A stretch of 64,000 bases of DNA from Waddliaceae bacterium. GTDB taxonomy: Bacteria > Chlamydiota > Chlamydiia > Chlamydiales > SLFE01. A program made the translations under genes and the position numbers. Of the stretch, positions 1,523 through 40,598 are shown in pieces (the stretch's first letter is position 1; each line of letters starts with the position of its first letter). Below the pieces are notes generated by a model, which was not told the DNA's origin, made no database searches, and saw only the letters and a program-made list of their open reading frames with translations. The stretch is from the NCBI GenBank assembly GCA_963783885.1, contig CAWAPJ010000001.1, positions 64,001 to 128,000 of the forward strand, written 5' to 3'.

Positions 1523-2248
1523 AGAATATTCATAACGGTATATTAACATACATGCATCCAACACGGCTGTATTTTTAAAAATTCTAATGCATTGACGATT
1601 AAATTTAATATCTTCTCCCACTTTCAGAAGAGTAGACCAGTGAATTTTTTCCCAAACAGATTTTCTTATTGCAATGCAACCATAAGTTAAACAATCGAAT
1701 CGCTTCAAATCTTTTATGGAGTTTATTTTGTAAGTGTGAAGGTGGTGACAGTCGTAATCATGCCATTTATCGCCAAGATCCAGCTGATCGACTCTAATCC
1801 AGCGATGAATAATATGATCAAACTTAGAGTGCCGAAATAGGTATTTAAGAATCTCGACTCTCTGAGGGTGGGGAAGATCATCTGCATCCTGACAAATAAA
1901 AATATCTCCGCTTGAATTTTCGCAGGCGATATTCCGATTACTTCCTGCGCTTTGACTATCATTATTTGACACTAAAATCACTTTGAAAGGCCAAGGCTTA
2001 TTTGTTAAAGAGGTAATATCATCCTCAGGAATCCTATAAGCTTCCGATAAGGAAATCACCATTTCATCAGGAAGCTCAGTTTGACAAGCATAGGAATTTA
2101 TGAGCTCTTCTAAAAAATAAAAATGTCGGTAATGGCAAGGGACGATGACTGTAACACCTTCATCTGCAGATAGATATGAAGTGAAGCTCCAAAATGAAAG
2201 AAAAATCAGCACCAAGCTGCATTTAATTTTCTCTGCCGATAAACGCAT
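1505..2248 (-). CDS. glycosyltransferase family 2 protein with putative signal peptide
   Basis: VTVIVPC, AGSNRN, QDADD (DxD), GED motifs; likely start MRLSAEK at 2248 (ORF extends to 2323). Confidence 0.8.
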   Translation of the reverse strand: MRLSAEKIKCSLVLIFLSFWSFTSYLSADEGVTVIVPCHYRHFYFLEELINSYACQTELPDEMVISLSEAYRIPEDDITSLTNKPWPFKVILVSNNDSQSAGSNRNIACENSSGDIFICQDADDLPHPQRVEILKYLFRHSKFDHIIHRWIRVDQLDLGDKWHDYDCHHLHTYKINSIKDLKRFDCLTYGCIAIRKSVWEKIHWSTLLKVGEDIKFNRQCIRIFKNTAVLDACMLIYRYEYSSFRSE

Positions 2249-2369
2249 TTTGAAAATCTTTGTTGTTAATAAACTAATATTCGAACATGACCATTCAGTC
2301 AAGACAAATACAGCAGGGTACAATTCACTAACATAGATAACACTTTAAAGTTTAGTAAATAATGCTCAG

Positions 2370-2786
2370 ACCCTGATTGCTACCTAAACTTGTTGTTAAA
2401 GTCTTTCGTTGGATTCAGATGCGTAGACTCGATTTGAAGGCAAGGGTAATCCCCTGCCGATAATCGAGGCTTAGCAGATGGATTCAATGAAAGATTTTAA
2501 CGACAATAGTCTCTATGATACTTCCTTAGCCAAAAAAGGGGGCATCATGGAAACTTACGCAACAACAGTTTATGTCAGCAGTGAAGAAATCCTTCGAATT
2601 TTGGGGATTAAAGACGATCCTCAATCTCAAATGCCCAACGCAGAAGTGATAACTTTTGCTATTTTATCAGCAAAATATTTTTCTTGTAACTATAAAATGT
2701 CCAGATATTTATGTAAAAGATTACGATTATTCAGAGCTATTTTAAACAATAGCCGGCTAAATCGCCGAATTCATAAAATTCCTTGG
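2370..2786 (+). mobile_element. truncated IS982-family element (left end plus 5' third of transposase)
   Basis: Begins with TIR ACCCTGATTGCTACCTAAAC; near-identical to the copies at 24978 and 55939 up to the internal CTTGG, where a MITE begins. Confidence 0.9.
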
Positions 2787-2901
2787 ACCCTGATTGCTAC
2801 CTAAACCTTAGCTAGAGCTTACACGAGCACACCGTCGACGCTACAGTTGTATCTGGCGCACTCGTGTAAGCTCTAGCTAAGGTTTAGGTAGCAATCAGGG
2901 T
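2787..2901. mobile_element. palindromic MITE made of two IS982 right ends
   Basis: Perfect 42-bp inverted arms 2786-2827 / 2861-2902 matching the IS982 right end; no ORF. Confidence 0.88.
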
Positions 2902-2986
2902 CTTTGCATTTCAATTTTTTTAGGCTATACTTTCACAACAAGACACTAACTCAACCAATTTTTGAATTTACTTCGGTATATAAGAA

Positions 2987-4759
2987 TTAATCAATAGTTT
3001 CGATTGAAACACCGTTTTTTTCAAGAAGTAAAATCAATTCAGGAGAATAAATTGTGGGGTTTTCTGTAATCATTCTTAAGTGGCGGACGCAAGGCTTTTC
3101 TCCTTGATCAATAAAACTTTTGACCCGCTTGTAAGTTTCGTCATTTTGATTATAAATAGCAAGAGATATGGGATCTTTCAGAATTTCATTCGTTAGAGGC
3201 GGTTTAGACTCGCCGTTTTGCGAATTTTTGCGTTCCTTCAGTTTTTTGATCAATTCATGAGTGACATCTTTTGGTTGATACAAAATAGATTGAATGACAT
3301 TTTTGATTGTCAAATGAAACCCCTTCTCCATAAGACTGAAAATTATTTCTTTGTTCGATGTTTGTATCGCATTTTCTAAAAGCCGCTGATTTCGATCATT
3401 TGCCTCAAATAAAGCCTCCTTTTCAAGCAAATGTTCAAAGAATTTTCTTTTAGGAATCTCGTGGAAACCCATCTCCAACTCGAAGCTTGGATGCACTCTG
3501 CTCTGTATCAAAAGTTCAAATAGGCCGGGAGAATTTTGGACATAAGTCTCAATAAGTTTTTTCAACTCGGCTTTATTCATTTTTGGATAGCAATCTGTCG
3601 CTCCGAATAGAGCATCAAGGTTTTTTTTATTATCAAGTTCATTTGAAGCCATTTCATTTGTAATCTTTAACCCATACATGCGCGCAAGTTTAATGATAAA
3701 TAATGACCTTTCGCTTTTGCTGCTTAGCAATTTCCGGAGCTGACTCGTAGATAATTGATACCCGGAAATAAAAAAGACATGCAAAAGCTCTATGCTATAA
3801 TCCACACATTCCTTTCCGCTTACTACTTGGTTGACAAGTTTGTTAAATCCCCAGTTATTTAATAACGTACCTTTATAAATATGAGTAACCAAATCTCTTA
3901 AGGAATCTTTATCGGGATTATTGATGATGTCATTAAATTTTCTAAAAGAGTGATCGGGCGACTGAGAATTCATAAAGAAATATTCATCTGCGACTGAATG
4001 CGGGCCGCATTTAAACTGTTCTTGGCAAAATGACGTCAAATGCCTGCTGGCAAAACTTCTATGATACTCTTCGGGAGAAACTTTATTTTTCAGTAAAAAA
4101 TCAACAATCTTTTTAAGATGATCCTGGCAGTACCTGAGAGCAAAAGTAAAACATGAAGCACTGAAGCATTGCTTAGAAGTTAATGCCTCCAAAATATCCA
4201 CAGTATGAGAGGTATCATTAACAAAAAGGAAATTAATGTTCTCATCTTCTGGGACATATCCTATGCTCAAAAGAGCTTCCACCACTGCGGCGGTATGTTC
4301 GTTCTGATTCTGAAAGAGAGTGCGATATATGTCATAGGATTGCAGGCTCGACCCTTCTTTAAGCCATTCTGAAATCAACTTTGGCGAATCTTCTGTCAGA
4401 GATTCCAGTTCGAGGTGCAGGCAATTATCATTTCTCTGAATTTTCCATTGATTCCAATATTTCTGCATCATGTTGTTGATAATCTTATTGACATGATCTT
4501 TATTCCAGCGCAAAGGGTCGTTGCCCAGTTGCTCTAGTTGTGCAAGAACGTTCTTTTTTAGTTCTTCAATCTGACCATCTAGATGGGATATCGCTCCAAT
4601 CGCTTCAATGTCGTGCTCTTCAAGATAACATTCTTGGATTTTACGCGATGAGATCCAATCTTTAAAAATCGTTCCAAAGCGTTGAGACCTTTGTTTCGAG
4701 GGTGAAAAATCGGCAAACTCCTGGCAAACCCTATTGGCAAAGTTAACTTCTGAAACCAT
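2987..4759 (-). CDS. hypothetical protein with degenerate ankyrin-like helical repeats (candidate effector)
   Basis: 590-aa AT-rich ORF; recurring units VEALLSIGY, VDFLLKNKV, IFSLMEKGF, LLLEKNGV. Confidence 0.6.
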   Translation of the reverse strand: MVSEVNFANRVCQEFADFSPSKQRSQRFGTIFKDWISSRKIQECYLEEHDIEAIGAISHLDGQIEELKKNVLAQLEQLGNDPLRWNKDHVNKIINNMMQKYWNQWKIQRNDNCLHLELESLTEDSPKLISEWLKEGSSLQSYDIYRTLFQNQNEHTAAVVEALLSIGYVPEDENINFLFVNDTSHTVDILEALTSKQCFSASCFTFALRYCQDHLKKIVDFLLKNKVSPEEYHRSFASRHLTSFCQEQFKCGPHSVADEYFFMNSQSPDHSFRKFNDIINNPDKDSLRDLVTHIYKGTLLNNWGFNKLVNQVVSGKECVDYSIELLHVFFISGYQLSTSQLRKLLSSKSERSLFIIKLARMYGLKITNEMASNELDNKKNLDALFGATDCYPKMNKAELKKLIETYVQNSPGLFELLIQSRVHPSFELEMGFHEIPKRKFFEHLLEKEALFEANDRNQRLLENAIQTSNKEIIFSLMEKGFHLTIKNVIQSILYQPKDVTHELIKKLKERKNSQNGESKPPLTNEILKDPISLAIYNQNDETYKRVKSFIDQGEKPCVRHLRMITENPTIYSPELILLLEKNGVSIETID

Positions 4760-34865: not shown

Positions 34866-35908
34866 ACCCTGATTGCTACCTAAACTTGTCGTTAAGGTCT
34901 TTCATTGAATTCAGATGCGTAGACTCGATTTGAAGGCAAGGGTAATCCTTTGCCGATAATCGAGGCTTAGCAGATGGATTCAATGAAAGATTTTAACGGC
35001 AATAGACTCATGTGATAATTCCTTAACCAAAAAAAGGAGTACATCATGGAAACTTATGCAATAACCGTTGATGTCATCAGCGAAGAAGTCCTTCGAATTT
35101 TAGGGGTTAAAGACGATCCTCAATCTCAAATGTCCAATGCAGAAGTTATAACTTTTGCAATTTTATCAGCAAAATATTTTTCTTGTAACTATAAAATATC
35201 CAGATATTTATGTAAGAGATTGCGATTATTCACAACTATTTTAAGCAATAGCCGACTTAACCGTTGAATCCATAAAATTCCCTGGACTTGTTGGAACGCT
35301 ATTTTCCGTTTTTTAGCTTTATTTTTTAAACAAATAAATAAAGATCAAGGTTTTGCTATAGATAGCTTTCCAGTTTCTTGCTGCCAGAAAAATAGAATCG
35401 ATAAACGGAAGATCTTTCTAGAGCGAAGGTTTTTTGGTTACGCAGCTTCTAAAAAGCGTTATTTTTGTGGCATAAAAGTTCATATGATTGTGACGAGTGA
35501 AGGCGAGCCGGTTGAAGTTCTTTTCAAGCCAGGAGCAGTAAGCGATGTAAAGGTACTCTGGGAGATGGAGTTGGACATACCGCCAGATTCTAAACTCTTA
35601 AGCAGATGGCGCCTATAATTGTTTTGATCTAGAGGACATCTTGCATGAAGAACAAATTACATTGCTTGCAAAACGGGGATGCAGAACGAAAAAACGGGTC
35701 CGAACACCTATTGAAGAGAGGGAAATCAGTAGCAAGCGACAAATTGTCGAAACGACGTTTAGCTGTATAACAAATCTTTTTCCTAGAACTTTTAAGGTCT
35801 GCACTGAACAAGGCTTTTTGATAAAAGTATTCTGTACAATTCTAGCCTATAGCGTTTCATTTTTATGCAATAGTAAGCTCTAGCTGAGGTTTAGGTAGCA
35901 ATCAGGGT
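34866..35908 (+). mobile_element. diverged IS982-family element with pseudogenised transposase
   Basis: Same TIRs, 5-bp direct repeat CTAAG; premature stop at 35265 and stop/frameshift near 35600; lacks the right-end nested hairpin. Confidence 0.92.
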
Positions 35909-36299
35909 CTAAGGCAGCTCTATTACTTATTTGAGTCATATCTTCATCAGAAAGGTCAAAATCAAAAACATTGAAATTATCAGCAATGTGGCTTGGATTA
36001 GAACGGCTTTGTTCTCTAATCGCGCCGTTTTTAGTCAAACATTTTCTCTTCTCCATAAAGAATTTTGAAAAAAGTCTCTTTTATCGCCATAACACACTCC
36101 CTTGGTTCTCTCCGGGATCTACTTTGGAGAGCGGTTTTCTCTGCTCTCGTCCCAATATATTTTTCGAAATAAATCAGGGCAGGCTATGTTGCGTGCGGAG
36201 TCTAAAGCTCCAAACAAGGCCGCGCCTTGACCTGATTCAAATCGGTATGTGTTTCTGGCTTAAAAATTAACTTCTCTCCACCATTTATTCTGGCTTCAA

Positions 36300-36366
36300 G
36301 CTCTGCTTTCCTCTTTTTTCGGCCTCTCACCCGGACTTGAAGGCCGAAAAAAGAGGAAAGCAGAGC
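36300..36366. repeat. perfect 26-bp inverted repeat in the IS110 3' non-coding region
   Basis: GCTCTGCTTTCCTCTTTTTTCGGCCT / AGGCCGAAAAAAGAGGAAAGCAGAGC with a 15-nt loop. Confidence 0.9.
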
Positions 36367-36375
36367 GGGGTAAAT

Positions 36376-37434
36376 TTAAGCTGCTACCGGTTCCTTTTTT
36401 ATACTCTCTTCCTTGCTGTCTCCGTACCGGAAGGGTTCGCGTTTCAAAAGCATCGCATGCATGATGACAGCCAGCTTCCTGCCGAGGGCAACTGTCGCCT
36501 TTTTGAAGCCCTTTTTTCTTTGAAGTTTCAACGCCCATGCCTTAGGTTTACACCAACTTCTAGTTCGGCTTAGCATCACAACTGCCGACTCCACTAACAA
36601 CGACCTGGTTTGTCTAGATCCGCACTTTGACACACGACCTAATCTTTGGGTCTCTCCTGAGGAGTACTGCCTTGGTGTTAGCCCCAAAAATGCAGCGACG
36701 TTCTTCGAGTTTTTGAAGCGGGTGTAATCACCAATCGCCACGAGATAGCTCAAGGACGTTAAAACCCCGATACCAGGAATTGTCATCAGCAGTTGGACAT
36801 CGGCGTTGTCTCGAGCTATCGACGAGATCTGTTTCTCGAGGTTGGTTATTTGTTCGGTTAAACATTCATATCCCTTTAAAAGTGCTTCGATAGCTGCTTG
36901 TACGGAGCTTATTTGATCTTGGATGCACTCCCGAACCAGCTTGATAAACAACAACTTTCCGGTTGTAGAAACAGTTAGTCCATAAGCTTTTAAAAAACCG
37001 CGAATTGCATTTTTTAGCTTTGTGCGCTCTTGAACCAGGGTGCTCCTTGACTGAAGGAGAACGCCTGTATCGACAAGCTCTTGGTTTTTGACGAACACCT
37101 CTTTGTAAAAGCCTCCTCGCATGGCATTAGCTATTCCCCGCGCATCATTGGTATCTGTCTTGTTGATGTTCATGGACAGAATCGAGGACATATGTCTTGC
37201 ATCCACGCATAGGACTGGGAGGCCGAGCTTTCTTAGCTCAGTAACCAACCAGTGGCTTAGGGAGCCTGTTTCAATCCCAATCTTATCGAGCTGAACCCCG
37301 GTTTTCAAAAGCTTCCGTTGGATTGATGAGGGGTCTGTTTTGGTATGTCCTTCATACACTACCTCTCCTTGGTGGTCTACGACACAAATAAAAGTCTCTT
37401 TCAAAGATACGTCTAATCCTACATAATGGTTCAT
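36376..37434 (-). CDS. IS110-family DEDD recombinase/transposase
   Basis: GLDVS, IETG, KTDTNDA (DEDD); TIPGIG, GLTPRQYSSG (catalytic Ser), VALGRKL. Confidence 0.95.
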   Translation of the reverse strand: MNHYVGLDVSLKETFICVVDHQGEVVYEGHTKTDPSSIQRKLLKTGVQLDKIGIETGSLSHWLVTELRKLGLPVLCVDARHMSSILSMNINKTDTNDARGIANAMRGGFYKEVFVKNQELVDTGVLLQSRSTLVQERTKLKNAIRGFLKAYGLTVSTTGKLLFIKLVRECIQDQISSVQAAIEALLKGYECLTEQITNLEKQISSIARDNADVQLLMTIPGIGVLTSLSYLVAIGDYTRFKNSKNVAAFLGLTPRQYSSGETQRLGRVSKCGSRQTRSLLVESAVVMLSRTRSWCKPKAWALKLQRKKGFKKATVALGRKLAVIMHAMLLKREPFRYGDSKEESIKKEPVAA

Positions 37435-37622
37435 GGCTGCTTCTCCTTTTTGGTTTTGGCCTTCGAGGCCGTGTTATTCCAATGGAGAGTTTATATAAAC
37501 TACTCCGCGGCGTTTTGCCAGAGAAGCAGCCTTTCGTTTAACTAAGCAGCGCGATTACAATATGTTGCGTAATTAACCACAGAGCTCACAAGAGCGCACA
37601 GAGAGAATATGAGAGATTTGAT

Positions 37623-38567
37623 TTAAGCTGCTATTAATTCACTTTCAGGCATTCCCAGCTTTGTCATTATATTTAGTGCTTCACATTTTGCCCTTGATTC
37701 AGCCCTTTGGGTTTCCAGAGTTCTACTTCTTAAATCATTTCCAAAGAATCGTTTAAATCTAAACATGGCTGTTTCTGCAAGTGATCGACGATGATAACCT
37801 TTCAACTTTTTCCATAATTTTCTTGCATCATCATCACCTCCTAAACCTGAAATTTCCAGCAAACTGATATTCCGCATCTTCCAAGAAGGAGATATGTTTT
37901 CTCGAAAAACAGCATTCCTATTGGGTGGAATAATAGGAATTGAGCCGTGAACTACATTTGCAGCATAGCATCGCTTAGTATCATAAGCCCCATCTCCATA
38001 TGTGCGCTTAACTGATTTCGGCATTACCTCGAGAAGTTTTGGATACACTTCACAATCTGCAACGTTATTTTCAGTAAGAATTTCGAAAATAATTTCGTGA
38101 GAGTCAGGGCAGACTGCCAGATGGAGCTTTCTCCATGTTCGCCTTTTACTGATTCCATGCTGCCTAACTTTCCATTCACCCTCTCCGTACACTTTCAAAC
38201 CGGTTGAATCGATTACAATATTGGTGACTTTTTTTTTCGAAAGTTTCTTCAACTCTTGCCCCAACAACTTAGCTCTCCGACAAATTTGAGTATAAGAAGG
38301 AATCGATAAACCAACAGATAAAATCATAACAAGAGATGTCAAAAATCCTTCGAGTGCTCTCAATGGAAGATGAAAAACCGATCGAATAATGAGCGCGGTG
38401 AGAATAGCGTCATCAGAATAGAGTTTTGGACGCCCCTTTTTTCCTATTTCTTTTGGAGCCATCCACTTATTGATAGCATCTTCAGAAAACCAAACAGTTA
38501 TGCTTCCCCTTTGAATAAGAGATTTGTTATAGTCGTTCCAGTTGCGAATGCGATATTTTGCCTTCAT
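37623..38567 (-). CDS. IS5-family (IS903 group) DDE transposase
   Basis: NWNDYNKSLIQRGSIT.W, IDSTGLKVYGEGEWKVRQHG, RRTWRKLHLAV, GDGAYD, YHRRSLAETAMFRFK. Confidence 0.95.
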   Translation of the reverse strand: MKAKYRIRNWNDYNKSLIQRGSITVWFSEDAINKWMAPKEIGKKGRPKLYSDDAILTALIIRSVFHLPLRALEGFLTSLVMILSVGLSIPSYTQICRRAKLLGQELKKLSKKKVTNIVIDSTGLKVYGEGEWKVRQHGISKRRTWRKLHLAVCPDSHEIIFEILTENNVADCEVYPKLLEVMPKSVKRTYGDGAYDTKRCYAANVVHGSIPIIPPNRNAVFRENISPSWKMRNISLLEISGLGGDDDARKLWKKLKGYHRRSLAETAMFRFKRFFGNDLRSRTLETQRAESRAKCEALNIMTKLGMPESELIAA

Positions 38568-38651
38568 CTTGATCCTCCAATTTGTTGCAACTAAAAATTA
38601 GAGTATTAGGTATTTGTCGGCAAGCTCGCATTCGCCCTTTTTGGAGAAAAG

Positions 38652-39059
38652 ATGACTAGTACCCACACAACTGAAGAAGCCAACCAAAAAAGAAATGACC
38701 TTTTAACAGGGGAAATCATAGGTGCTGCGATTGAAGTTCATCGAAGATTAGGTCCAGGCTTGCTTGAATCGACATACGAAACTTGTCTTTGCTACGAGTT
38801 GAACCTTGCGGGTTTGAAAGTTAACCGGCAGATACCAGTACCTATTATTTATCGTGATAAAAAGCTAGACTCAGGCTACCGGATCGATATGATAGTGGAA
38901 GATAAGGTTATTTTGGAGATAAAATCTGTGGCCAATCTCTTGCCTGTTCATGAGGCCCAACTTCTATCCTATCTTAAGCATAATGGCGGTGGCAGAGGTT
39001 TGCTCATCAATTTCAATGTAAAACTTCTAAAAAATGGGATTAGGCGTCTAATCATTTAA
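38652..39059 (+). CDS. GxxExxY family protein (PD-(D/E)XK nuclease fold)
   Basis: IIGAAIEVHRRLGPGLLESTYE, YRIDMIVE.KVILEIKSV, HEAQLLSYLK, GLLINF. Confidence 0.93.
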   Translation: MTSTHTTEEANQKRNDLLTGEIIGAAIEVHRRLGPGLLESTYETCLCYELNLAGLKVNRQIPVPIIYRDKKLDSGYRIDMIVEDKVILEIKSVANLLPVHEAQLLSYLKHNGGGRGLLINFNVKLLKNGIRRLII

Positions 39060-39758
39060 TTCCTCTCTCATAATCTCTCAGTGAGCTCGGTGGTCTCAGT
39101 GGTGATTTATGCAACAACGCCGATTAGAACTGCCGGGCAAGGGAATAACCTCTTTTTGAATGATCCAGCGCAATGCAACCTGCCCGGAGCTTTTGCCATA
39201 TTTCTTGCCAATTTCAACAAGCCCCGCATCATTAGCAAGTTTTCCCCGATTTAGTGGCCTCCATGCTTGTATTTTAATCTTATTTCTTTGGCAGAAAGAG
39301 ATTAAACTGTCATCGCAATAGTCGGGATGCATTTCATTCTGAACCCATGATATGGGAACACCCACATCAAAAGCTCGTCGAAGATGGTTGATTGTCACGT
39401 TGCTCATTCCGATTTCGCGAACTTTACCTTCTCTTTGTAATTTCTCCATTGTTGTGAGAGTTTCGGTAACGCTAGTTTGACTGTTCGGCCAAAGGTAATT
39501 GGTGATTTCTGAATAAGGTCATTTCCCAGATGTTATGGTGTTCATGATGACTCCTTTAGAAAAAAGAAAATTCTAAACACTCAACTTAAATTGGTCAATT
39601 TATTCGTCGATTTAGAAAGGGAGCCTGGGCAGTATTTCTTACCAGATCTCGAGGCAAGCTGGGCAGGATGTTGCTTCAGATTTGTTTTTAAATGCCCTCT
39701 GGCATTGTCTGATCGATAAGACGAGGGCATTTGAGGACGAAGATGGAGTGACAAACTG

Positions 39759-40598
39759 TCAAAATTGTCCGATAGCTGGTGAGAAATGCGGCCTAGGGCG
39801 GCGAAAGAAAGAGGGATCCGGCATGCCGCGAAAACACCTGGGCACGAATGGATAATCTTCGGTAATGAAATAATGGTAGATTCCTTCGGGATATTCAGGG
39901 GTGACGCCGAACCGCCCATTGCAGCCGTCGAGGTCCCCTAAACCTTTGACATATTCATAGTCCCGAACAAAAGTACCGTCGTAGCGTCCTCCCGGACCGC
40001 CGGGGCGCTTTCCCCTCTTTATCCGATAGCTGCTTTTCATCTTTTCTATCCCGCTGGAGGCATCCTGAGGATTTTTATATCCGTAGACAGCGTAGATCGG
40101 AAACCCGTCAGCCGCCCAGCCGACAAGTACAGGACGTGTTTTCCAACCCGGCAGCTTCCTCACAAGCCCCCAGGGAACGCCGTGGTAGTGATAAGCGCCG
40201 TTTGGCTGTACATGGGCATCGCTTCGGTCAAATCCGAGGTTGATATGGCCTGAAAGGGCCTCATACTGCCATCCGGAACGAGGATTGCGATTCCAAAATT
40301 CCATTGCCCCGGGATCGAAAGGGACTCCATTGACGGCAACGCCAAAGGGGTGCATGCCTAAAGGAGTCGTATGAGACGCTATTTCCGGATGCAGCGGAAC
40401 GCGGAACATATAATGCTGAGGCTCAATAGTATTTGGATTGTGCGCGTTGGGGAAATGTCCTGTCGGATGATTGGGGATGCCATTGCTTTCGATGATGCGG
40501 AAATTTTGATCTGTGGTTATGCGTACTTCGTTTTTTTCCGCAGATAGTGATGGAAGGGCAAAAAGGAGAATCATTGCCGCTATTTTTCGTATAAGCAT
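39759..40598 (-). CDS. YHYH domain secreted protein
   Basis: Signal peptide; SNGIPNH, GVAVNGVPF, AHVQPNGAYHYHG, GWAADGFPIY, DLDGCNG, YHYF. Confidence 0.9.
   Translation of the reverse strand: MLIRKIAAMILLFALPSLSAEKNEVRITTDQNFRIIESNGIPNHPTGHFPNAHNPNTIEPQHYMFRVPLHPEIASHTTPLGMHPFGVAVNGVPFDPGAMEFWNRNPRSGWQYEALSGHINLGFDRSDAHVQPNGAYHYHGVPWGLVRKLPGWKTRPVLVGWAADGFPIYAVYGYKNPQDASSGIEKMKSSYRIKRGKRPGGPGGRYDGTFVRDYEYVKGLGDLDGCNGRFGVTPEYPEGIYHYFITEDYPFVPRCFRGMPDPSFFRRPRPHFSPAIGQF

Follow-up and report, generated by a model that had tools for sequence, protein, structure and literature searches.

An IS903-type insertion sequence of a Waddliaceae bacterium that carries a GxxExxY gene and heptamer arrays in both ends

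A two-gene transposon in the Waddliaceae genome

We analyzed a 64,000-nucleotide stretch of the genome of a Waddliaceae bacterium (contig CAWAPJ010000001.1 of GenBank assembly GCA_963783885.1, forward-strand positions 64,001 to 128,000), referred to here as the window. An insertion sequence (IS) of the IS5/IS903 type spans window positions 36005 to 39121 and splits a host gene for an aldo/keto reductase. The element carries two divergent genes, one for a DDE transposase and one for a GxxExxY protein with a PD-(D/E)XK nuclease fold, which are 84 bp apart and lie within a pair of ~59-bp imperfect inverted ends. Each end contains three CACNGAG-type units at 9- to 10-bp spacing. An earlier reading of the bare sequence (the original prediction) had proposed a transposase gene and an intact GxxExxY gene, divergently oriented inside one pair of inverted ends, with three such units per end at 37578 to 37603 and 39077 to 39101. 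We found that the profile matches, the coordinates, and the ends agree with it on each of these points. The features of the element and of the split gene are as follows.

35996 to 36004, no strand: target-site duplication, left copy, GATTAGAAC, 9 bp, repeated at 39122 to 39130
36005 to 36013, plus strand: first 9 bp of the IS5-type left terminal repeat, GGCTTTGTT; intact copies read GGCTTTGTTGCGTAATTAACC...
37567 to 37616, plus strand: remainder of the left end (GCGTAATTAACC...), with the rest of the IS903-type tip (37567 to 37577), three units (37578 to 37603), and an inner ATGAGAG
37623 to 38567, minus strand: IS5-family DDE transposase gene, 314 amino acids (aa); NF033579, 289 bits (cutoff, 140); PF13737, 116 bits; PF01609, 75.8 bits
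38568 to 38651, no strand: divergent intergenic region, 84 bp, presumed to contain both promoters
38652 to 39059, plus strand: GxxExxY (PDDEXK_3) nuclease-fold gene, 135 aa; TIGR04256, 148 bits (cutoff, 35); PF13366, 142.7 bits (cutoff, 22)
39063 to 39121, minus strand: right end, with an inner ATGAGAG, three CTCNGTG units (39077 to 39101), and the IS903-type tip to 39121
39122 to 39130, no strand: target-site duplication, right copy, GATTAGAAC
Open reading frame (ORF) 39096 to 39449, minus strand: aldo/keto reductase, upstream piece, real gene sequence from 39122 (PF00248 positions 124 to 264, right side of the element)
ORF 35880 to 36056, minus strand: aldo/keto reductase, downstream piece, real gene sequence to 36004 (PF00248 positions 262 to 287, left side; E = 0.007)

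The left units CACAGAG, CACAAGAG (with one extra base), and CACAGAG begin at 37578, 37587, and 37597, and the right units CTCAGTG, CTCGGTG, and CTCAGTG begin at 39077, 39086, and 39095. A strict search for the three-unit pattern gave one occurrence in the window and none in any of 100 shuffles of it. The transposase has no extra domain; its Pfam matches are limited to PF13737 and PF01609.

To define the intact unit, we used the uninterrupted copies in the same assembly (2.16 Mb, 46 contigs). It is 1564 bp long and has two genes, and the eight uninterrupted copies start GGCTTTGTTGCGTAATTAACCACAGAG and finish CTCAGTGGTGATTTATGCAACAACGCC. Together with the window copy, the genome holds nine full-length copies that are 98.5 to 100% identical. 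Perfect 9-bp duplications flank eight of the nine (the window copy and seven of the eight uninterrupted ones), and the copy at C8:142412 has none. We also found four deletion derivatives that keep both ends, three of them with 9-bp duplications. The derivative on contig C16 is 378 bp long, consists of bases 1 to 226 joined to bases 1415 to 1564, contains neither gene, and is flanked by the duplication TCCCATACT. Those on contigs C32, C28, and C33 share one deletion junction (768/1360), and the C33 and C28 derivatives have 9-bp duplications. In contigs from public sequencing runs (four runs from three studies), the depth of the IS is ~5 to 10 times that of its flanks, and the loose ends at 36004/36005 and 39121 are joined to various flanking sequences. 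All 17 tblastn matches to GxxExxY in the genome lie inside copies or fragments of the IS. Copies of the transposase that are 100% identical are present both in this genome and in a sister genome (G379), and in an older lineage of the element on contig C6 the two IS ends are 91% identical over 58 nucleotides (nt). We concluded that the two-gene unit is a real transposon, as had been proposed; it moves as one piece and, like IS903-type elements, generates 9-bp duplications. The 9-bp duplications and the mobilized derivative support a role for the DDE transposase in this movement.

The left boundary had been placed at 36182, and the left tip had been rebuilt from there. This part of the original prediction was wrong, as the left end is interrupted by a separate, nested element.

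36014 to 37566, minus strand: IS110-family element, 1553 bp, separate from the GxxExxY transposon; junctions ambiguous by 4 bases (TGTT)
36376 to 37434, minus strand: IS110-family transposase gene, 352 aa; NF033542, 270 bits (cutoff, 140); PF01548; PF02371
36182 to 36194, no strand: GGCTATGTTGCGT, a 12/13 copy of the target word, inside the 3' noncoding region of the IS110 element

The IS110 insertion cut the left end of the GxxExxY transposon after base 9, and the tip resumes at 37567. A second, identical IS110 copy lies on contig C19 (~1950 to 3502), where identity extends from window position 35997 to 37572 and the flanks differ beyond. That copy interrupts a different IS end at the corresponding point (GGCCTTGTT^GCGTAAG), so that both copies, a small sample, lie in GGCYTTGTT^GCGTAA of two different IS5-type ends. 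The single specific target word of these two copies and their lack of long terminal inverted repeats are traits of the IS110 family, and the transposase is a DEDD enzyme with a Transposase_20 domain (NF033542, PF01548, and PF02371). In addition, a contig from public run X1 joins 36009 to 37563, skipping 1553 bases with 4 letters ambiguous, which is the predicted empty form. Because 36014 to 37566 is shared with C19 and skipped in the X1 contig, the piece at 36182 is a copy of the target word internal to the IS110 element. The 3' noncoding region of that element (36014 to 36375, minus strand, 362 nt) folds with a z score of -6.8, and the target-word copy at 36182 to 36194 may function as the guide in a bridge/seek RNA. 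Rfam gave only chance miRNA and leader matches in the region, all on a perfect 26-bp hairpin at 36300 to 36366 inside the IS110 element.

Other mobile sequences lie close by. To the left of the reductase fragment, at ~35046 to 35912, are the remains of another IS whose end, ...AGGTTTAGGTAGCAATCAGGGT, is at ~35889 to 35911; its ORFs at 35046 to 35267 and 35641 to 35883 resemble pieces of an IS982/IS4-type transposase. The same IS family is inserted at an identical position in two decayed copies of the GxxExxY element (C6:40377-41470 and C28:22408-23036). We looked in G379 for an empty aldo/keto reductase site and found that the gene is absent there. A stretch of ~155 bp at window positions ~39634 to 39795 occurs in at least four places in G379 (73 to 85% identity), where the surrounding reductase gene is missing, and may be a miniature inverted-repeat transposable element (MITE).

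The GxxExxY gene and the arrays across the clade

To determine how widely the pairing recurs, we examined the 80 closest GxxExxY loci from species-representative genomes. An IS5 transposase adjoins GxxExxY in three of them. L035 is a near-identical copy in a Waddliaceae metagenome-assembled genome (MAG), and L037 and L051, both from Chlamydiota, have GxxExxY proteins that are 69 to 71% identical and the same arrays and tip 3' of the stop codon. We then started from the transposase, which has matches in 106 of 400 Chlamydiota genomes. Among the best 30 Chlamydiota loci, GxxExxY lies beside transposases of 100% (the window's genome, G000, and G379), 93% (L117), and 68% (L119) identity, and arrays are present at the transposase-distal tip in L118 (73%), L119, and L123 (both 68%). 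No GxxExxY match was found at the 25 Chlamydiota loci with transposases of 62% identity or less. In 18 of these we found both tips and no arrays; the transposase-proximal tip is 91 to 162 nt from the start codon, and behind the tips is unrelated sequence. The k-mer search for tips left the other seven unresolved.

A set of 80 transposase loci from metagenomes gave a similar picture. The gene, the arrays, or both are present in L145 to L150, L153, L157, and L166; L154 has the gene and no arrays at its tips, and L175 is cut on both sides. Among the other metagenome loci, all with transposases of 65% identity or less, none of 69 had a GxxExxY match, and 54 had a recognizable tip with no heptamer unit; the tip pattern found no tip in the remaining 15. 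GxxExxY adjoins the transposase gene and is divergent from it in L117 (93% transposase identity), L119 (68%), L146 (87%), L147 (71%), L148 and L149 (70%), L157 (61%), and L166 (74%), and pieces of the gene/array layout are present in L153, L037, and L051. The gene and arrays thus accompany transposases that are at least 67% identical, and one at 61%, in other Chlamydiota and in metagenomes; with the exception of L157, the relatives of 65% identity or less whose tips were found have plain ends. In the five elements for which both ends can be seen (L119, L123, L146, L147, and L157), the tip is followed at each end after 0 to 10 nt by three units with 1- to 2-nt spacers. The transposase-distal array is present in 12 of the 12 elements with a visible distal end.

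These data show that the whole IS clade retains GxxExxY together with an array at each end and that related IS without the gene lack the arrays. We looked for two of the findings that the original prediction had named as speaking against it. The first was arrays in IS5 relatives that lack GxxExxY, and the arrays are lacking in the 18 Chlamydiota and 54 metagenome loci above. The second was a pairing seen only once, and the pairing instead recurs in several genomes and metagenome contigs.

We built a tree of 71 transposases from L115 to L189, omitting L166 and L175, which are short, and L116 and L145, which are identical to the window's; L190 to L224 were not included. Eleven of the 12 bearers of arrays or GxxExxY fall in one group, which we defined after inspecting the tree (Shimodaira-Hasegawa-like approximate likelihood ratio test support, 81), within a clade of 99% support that also contains L151 and L160. 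Forcing the 12 bearers together costs 36 log-likelihood units, with an approximately unbiased test P value of 0.0875, so that a single clade is not rejected.

Between the window's element and L146, L147, and L117 (103 codons for GxxExxY in the last), the ratios of nonsynonymous to synonymous substitution rates (dN/dS) were 0.039, 0.069, and 0.029 for GxxExxY and 0.083, 0.121, and 0.076 for the transposase; these ratios are rough, since dS is near or past saturation for several of the between-lineage pairs. Within the genome, the master copy and the older C6/C12 lineage differ in GxxExxY by 18 synonymous and 5 to 7 nonsynonymous changes (dN/dS, 0.07 to 0.10). We concluded that GxxExxY is under strong purifying selection. 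Two old copies with wrecked transposase genes have lost invariant residues of GxxExxY, one through D79Y and a 4-codon deletion and the other through G24S/A26V, which indicates that a dead element no longer preserves the gene. We had considered that decayed copies might keep GxxExxY for the sake of the host and rejected this, because both carry such changes.

Heptamer arrays and the GxxExxY protein

The original prediction had also stated that inverted repeats of the CACAGAG type often bracket GxxExxY genes. We compared the 160 nt before the conserved core with the 130 nt after the stop codon at 71 nonidentical GxxExxY loci with enough flank and found that this is correct: in 56 of them, from many phyla, the inverted match between the two arms was above every shuffled control. 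The locus's own partner arm outranked all others of the 71 in 25 loci and came within the first three in 38; L035, of the IS-borne type, had an inverted-arm score of 8. The words of the arrays vary by locus and include CACAGAG, CACGGAG, CGCCGAG, CACAAAG, CGCAGAG, and others. They also differ between paralogues inside one genome (seven words in G401 and four in G403) and are always matched between the two arms.

We next asked what is conserved between the arms. In 34 ungapped arm alignments, mismatches affected 2.4% of the core letters, 21% of the fourth letters, and 47% of the spacer letters, where a unit was called when either arm fitted the pattern, a rule that somewhat favors the core. Unit starts are 8 to 11 bp apart, mostly 8 to 9. 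This difference between core, fourth letter, and spacers indicates that it is the words that are kept and not a helix, and we infer that the arrays are iterated protein-binding sites under selection as repeated words. GxxExxY is the candidate binder, because it is the sole protein that the cassette encodes. From these sequence patterns, GxxExxY probably binds the phased heptamer words, with several protomers at each end and at both ends of the element.

We considered two other explanations of the arrays. According to the first, they would act in RNA, where their pairing would give an extended stem of the kind that RNase III cuts in rRNA intervening sequences; the stem would insulate or process the element's transcript, and the protein would be unrelated. 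The array arms are complementary, the gene-less array pairs of the window's own genome fold at about -50 kcal/mol, and cassettes sit within operons, tight between stop and start codons, all of which this explanation would account for. However, the distribution of mismatches given above is not that of a stem, and the mismatches show no bias toward G-U on the sense strand (63 sense, 47 antisense, and 116 of the transversion type). A stem would need neither a word repeated three to four times nor a separate word for each paralogue. No Rfam family matches the arrays in the region or in eight cassette loci. Furthermore, because the two genes of the IS are transcribed divergently, no internal transcript contains both arrays, and still the clade has conserved the two of them, which argues for a role on DNA. 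We therefore consider the RNA explanation improbable.

According to the second explanation, the arrays are additional binding sites for the IS5 transposase in long multisite ends, as in Mu and Tn7, and GxxExxY is unrelated cargo. In its favor, the arrays directly adjoin the ~20-bp tip on either side of the element, their conservation extends over the clade, and multisite ends are described in other transposons (PMC9308760). In contrast, arrays of the same kind flank GxxExxY genes in transposase-free genomes and loci of many phyla, they are lacking in the IS5 relatives without GxxExxY, and the 314-aa transposase, with its two Pfam domains, has no extra domain. This explanation is more improbable still.

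Arrays also occur apart from the gene. Gene-less array pairs with short loops are common near GxxExxY genes. The window's own genome contains 23 arrays of at least three strict units: 18 at IS ends, 4 in two gene-less hairpins, and 1 alone. Each of the two hairpins (C28:64021-64141 and C40:1138-1236) consists of three-unit arrays in inverted orientation, whose words resemble those of the IS ends, and folds at about -50 kcal/mol; the GxxExxY genes of this genome are all IS borne. Several related genomes have a cassette at a shared site between one and the same pair of host genes (L087, L090, L094, L098, L102, and L106; L047, L055, L084, and L093; L060 and L096), as in two Betaproteobacteria records where the cassette precedes a trpG-like gene. 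These shared sites suggest long vertical residence as well as mobility. At L075:686-1217, an array-bracketed cassette has in GxxExxY's place a different 154-aa ORF with an ...EAKG... motif, which may be another nuclease-fold cargo. Our literature search on CACAGAG or heptamer inverted repeats found nothing relevant among the titles listed.

The GxxExxY protein itself is, according to its modeled structure, a minimal PD-(D/E)XK nuclease without a characterized close relative. An alignment of 50 sequences shows no variation at G36, E39, and Y42 of the GxxExxY motif; of the catalytic D...ExK residues, D79 and K91 are likewise invariant, whereas conservation of E89 is at least 90%. The AlphaFold model (mean predicted local distance difference test score, 90.8; predicted template modeling score, 0.83) has a PD-(D/E)XK fold, and its best Foldseek matches in the PDB are Cas4 SSO0001, the RecB-type nuclease domains of AdnAB and AddAB, YraN, and Hjc, all of them weak, with E values of ~0.01 and template modeling scores of 0.37 to 0.47. 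By sequence, the PDB gave only chance-level matches to RelE (E, 0.4 to 0.8). PADLOC gave marginal matches to Cas4 (E, 0.02 to 0.03) and PHROGs gave none, so that neither assigned the protein to a defense system or phage family. A search for longer GxxExxY proteins returned many of ~260 to 340 aa that match PF13366 alone at about twice the single-domain score (P0001 to P0099); from the scores rather than the sequences, we interpret these as two domains in tandem. In others, read-through has fused the protein with the product of a host gene (FabZ-like, QueC, SIS, aldehyde dehydrogenase, and RND pump), which shows that cassettes abut host genes tightly, and no informative domain fusion was found among the longer proteins. 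In the literature, the entry for the family in a 2012 survey gives its function as "Unknown" (PMC3424549), and a passage of another paper mentions the family incidentally (PMC8934634). Our full-text searches for GxxExxY, PDDEXK_3, PF13366, and TIGR04256 returned only incidental mentions and no function.

Possible origin and role of the nuclease gene and comparison with known systems

The original prediction had proposed a GxxExxY repeat cassette fused with a DDE transposon, and this is borne out, as both the arrays and the gene lie inside the IS ends. An ordinary cassette consists of an array, the ORF, and an array. In the IS, the right array lies 3' of the stop codon and directly adjoins the right tip, whereas the transposase gene separates the ORF from the upstream partner array, which is at the far IS end, behind the left tip. 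The ORF is thus not directly bracketed by inverted arrays, and its proximal upstream array has decayed: the first ~13 codons of the GxxExxY ORF align with the intact arrays of ordinary cassettes, an alignment that is suggestive only. The closest free cassette, L036, encodes a GxxExxY protein of 71% identity and has the inner ATGAGAG-type unit in common with the IS. In an evenly balanced judgment, the element may be a chimeric IS, in which an IS903-group DDE transposon absorbed a GxxExxY/heptamer-array cassette as a fixed part. The cassette could have landed just inside the right tip; the tip and array would then have been copied to the left end, and the cassette's own upstream array would have decayed afterwards.

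Cassettes are also carried by other IS. An IS630-family element of 1762 bp (L038:3331-5092), present as five identical copies in another Waddliaceae MAG (L038 to L042), carries a whole cassette between the transposase stop codon and the terminal 30 nt, with arrays at 3498 to 3530 and 3903 to 3937. The insert is the cassette plus ~135 nt, and a comparison with IS630 relatives yielded no readable clean border or duplication. A second IS630 lineage (L229:700-1263, minus strand) has, at the same spot, a GxxExxY gene whose product is 34% identical and inverted repeats of the CATGAT type. In addition, an IS5 relative from a different clade (L154:5-1860), with plain tips and a transposase of 61% identity, carries a GxxExxY gene (127 to 480) and, 3' of it and upstream of the transposase gene, a complete gene-less array hairpin (515 to 556 and 612 to 652). 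Only in the IS5 clade described here do the arrays form part of both ends.

These carriers raise the possibility that in our element, too, the cassette is a pure hitchhiker, selfish or neutral cargo in a permissive spot of the IS that has no role in transposition and may serve the cassette's own spread or retention. Cassettes in permissive IS630 sites, in two lineages with different words, and in a plain-ended IS5 relative are what it would lead us to expect, as are chromosomal cassettes in Chlamydiota, such as L036 beside a secG-like gene (from our reading of the ORFs). It has to contend with the finding that the gene is present in every element of the clade with that side visible, bar deletion derivatives such as L123, and has been kept although the transposases of the clade have diverged to 61 to 70% identity. 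The dN/dS of GxxExxY, 0.03 to 0.10, is no higher than that of the transposase, which in a multicopy element is most easily explained by selection on the element. Finally, the distal array, 1 kb from the gene, was kept in 12 of 12 elements, whereas the array at the ORF start decayed. We regard a pure hitchhiker as unlikely.

The original prediction had suggested that the nuclease may bind or cut the arrays, in excision, homing, immunity, or addiction; these functions are conjecture. We favor instead a role for GxxExxY in the movement of the element. By analogy with Tn7, GxxExxY might be an accessory end-processing nuclease, a proposal we make tentatively. The DDE transposase would recognize only the outer ~20-bp tip, and GxxExxY would cut the strand or flank that the DDE enzyme leaves uncut, as TnsA does for TnsB. 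Such cleavage would favor simple insertions over cointegrates. A stronger form of this proposal seems doubtful: that GxxExxY, a word-specific array-binding nuclease, serves here as the second subunit of a two-protein transposase, an independent reinvention of TnsA/TnsB. In that form, the DDE enzyme would process the transferred strands, and the PD-(D/E)XK enzyme, on the subterminal words, would process the other strands or flanks.

Several observations weigh against such a role. GxxExxY cassettes occur without any transposase in most genomes, so that the primary job of GxxExxY cannot depend on a DDE partner. The cassettes carried as plain cargo by the two IS630 lineages and the plain-ended IS5 relative fit hitchhiking. 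The gene-less C16 derivative moved, which fits help in trans but also fits a GxxExxY protein that is not needed, as the hitchhiker explanation would have it. The two genes disagree in dS across lineages (against L117, 0.44 for the transposase and 2.8 for GxxExxY); this discordance, which also favors the hitchhiker, suggests that the gene is a module exchangeable among related elements. L157 falls in a sister group outside the main group of bearers. The distance from the tip to the first unit ranges from 21 to 31 nt among members of the clade, which is not the rigid geometry expected of a TnsA/TnsB-like pair. No match of GxxExxY to TnsA, by sequence or as a close fold, was found among the Pfam and NCBIfam matches and the Foldseek folds listed above.

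The GxxExxY/PDDEXK_3 family is large and extends over many bacterial phyla and some archaea; in most genomes, the cassette offers no assay. An active, multicopy DDE transposon, in contrast, gives movement that can be scored genetically, and the roles of the nuclease and the arrays are therefore testable by deletion and mutation. If the two-protein transposase proved true, a nuclease family spread over many phyla would gain its first function. Within the IS5 family, a clade that conserves a second gene and has multisite ends would itself be unusual. For annotation, a gene labeled "GxxExxY protein" in Chlamydiota can belong to an IS rather than to the host.

The element is a clade-wide two-gene variant of an IS903-type IS. 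IS903 has ~18-bp terminal repeats, one gene, a length of ~1.05 kb, and no passenger. Like that group, our element has a DDE transposase that fits IS5-family models, terminal repeats that start GGC.TTGTTGC in the nine copies and in relatives (a start that we take to resemble that of IS903's own repeat), a 9-bp target duplication, many copies, and a MITE-like derivative. Unlike that group, it is 1564 bp long with two genes, whereas plain relatives are ~1.05 to 1.2 kb long with one gene, and its ends are ~59 bp long, each tip being followed by three or four phased heptamers. Passenger genes are the mark of transporter IS (tIS), and like them, the element has an extra gene inside the terminal repeats that moves with the transposase. 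It differs from tIS in that the same extra gene is present across the whole clade under purifying selection and in that cis sequences are built into both ends, which is unexpected of chance cargo. Our search of the literature on passenger genes in IS5/IS903 found no such case among the titles listed.

With Tn7, the element shares adjacent genes for a nuclease of the PD-(D/E)XK fold and a DDE transposase, as well as ends with several repeated short sites. In Tn7, TnsA is described as cutting the donor flank, which leads to simple rather than replicative insertion (PMC11406308). Our element differs in that its proteins have no homology to TnsA/TnsB (in Pfam, NCBIfam, and the listed fold matches), the GxxExxY family also lives alone without a transposase, there are no TnsC-, TnsD-, or TnsE-like genes, and the duplication is 9 bp and not 5 bp. 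The cassette also resembles REPIN-RAYT systems as they are described in PMC3116915, with a small enzyme gene flanked by inverted short repeats, scattered gene-less hairpins, and a repeat type specific to each gene. Unlike a RAYT, its enzyme is a PD-(D/E)XK hydrolase (the only families matched are PDDEXK_3 and GxxExxY) and not a Y1 HUH transposase, and its repeats are arrays of phased 7-mers. We know of no RAYT system welded into a DDE transposon. The fusion of a GxxExxY cassette with an IS seems to be new: where the arrays of an ordinary cassette bracket the nuclease gene, those of the IS bracket transposase and nuclease together, just inside the IS tips.

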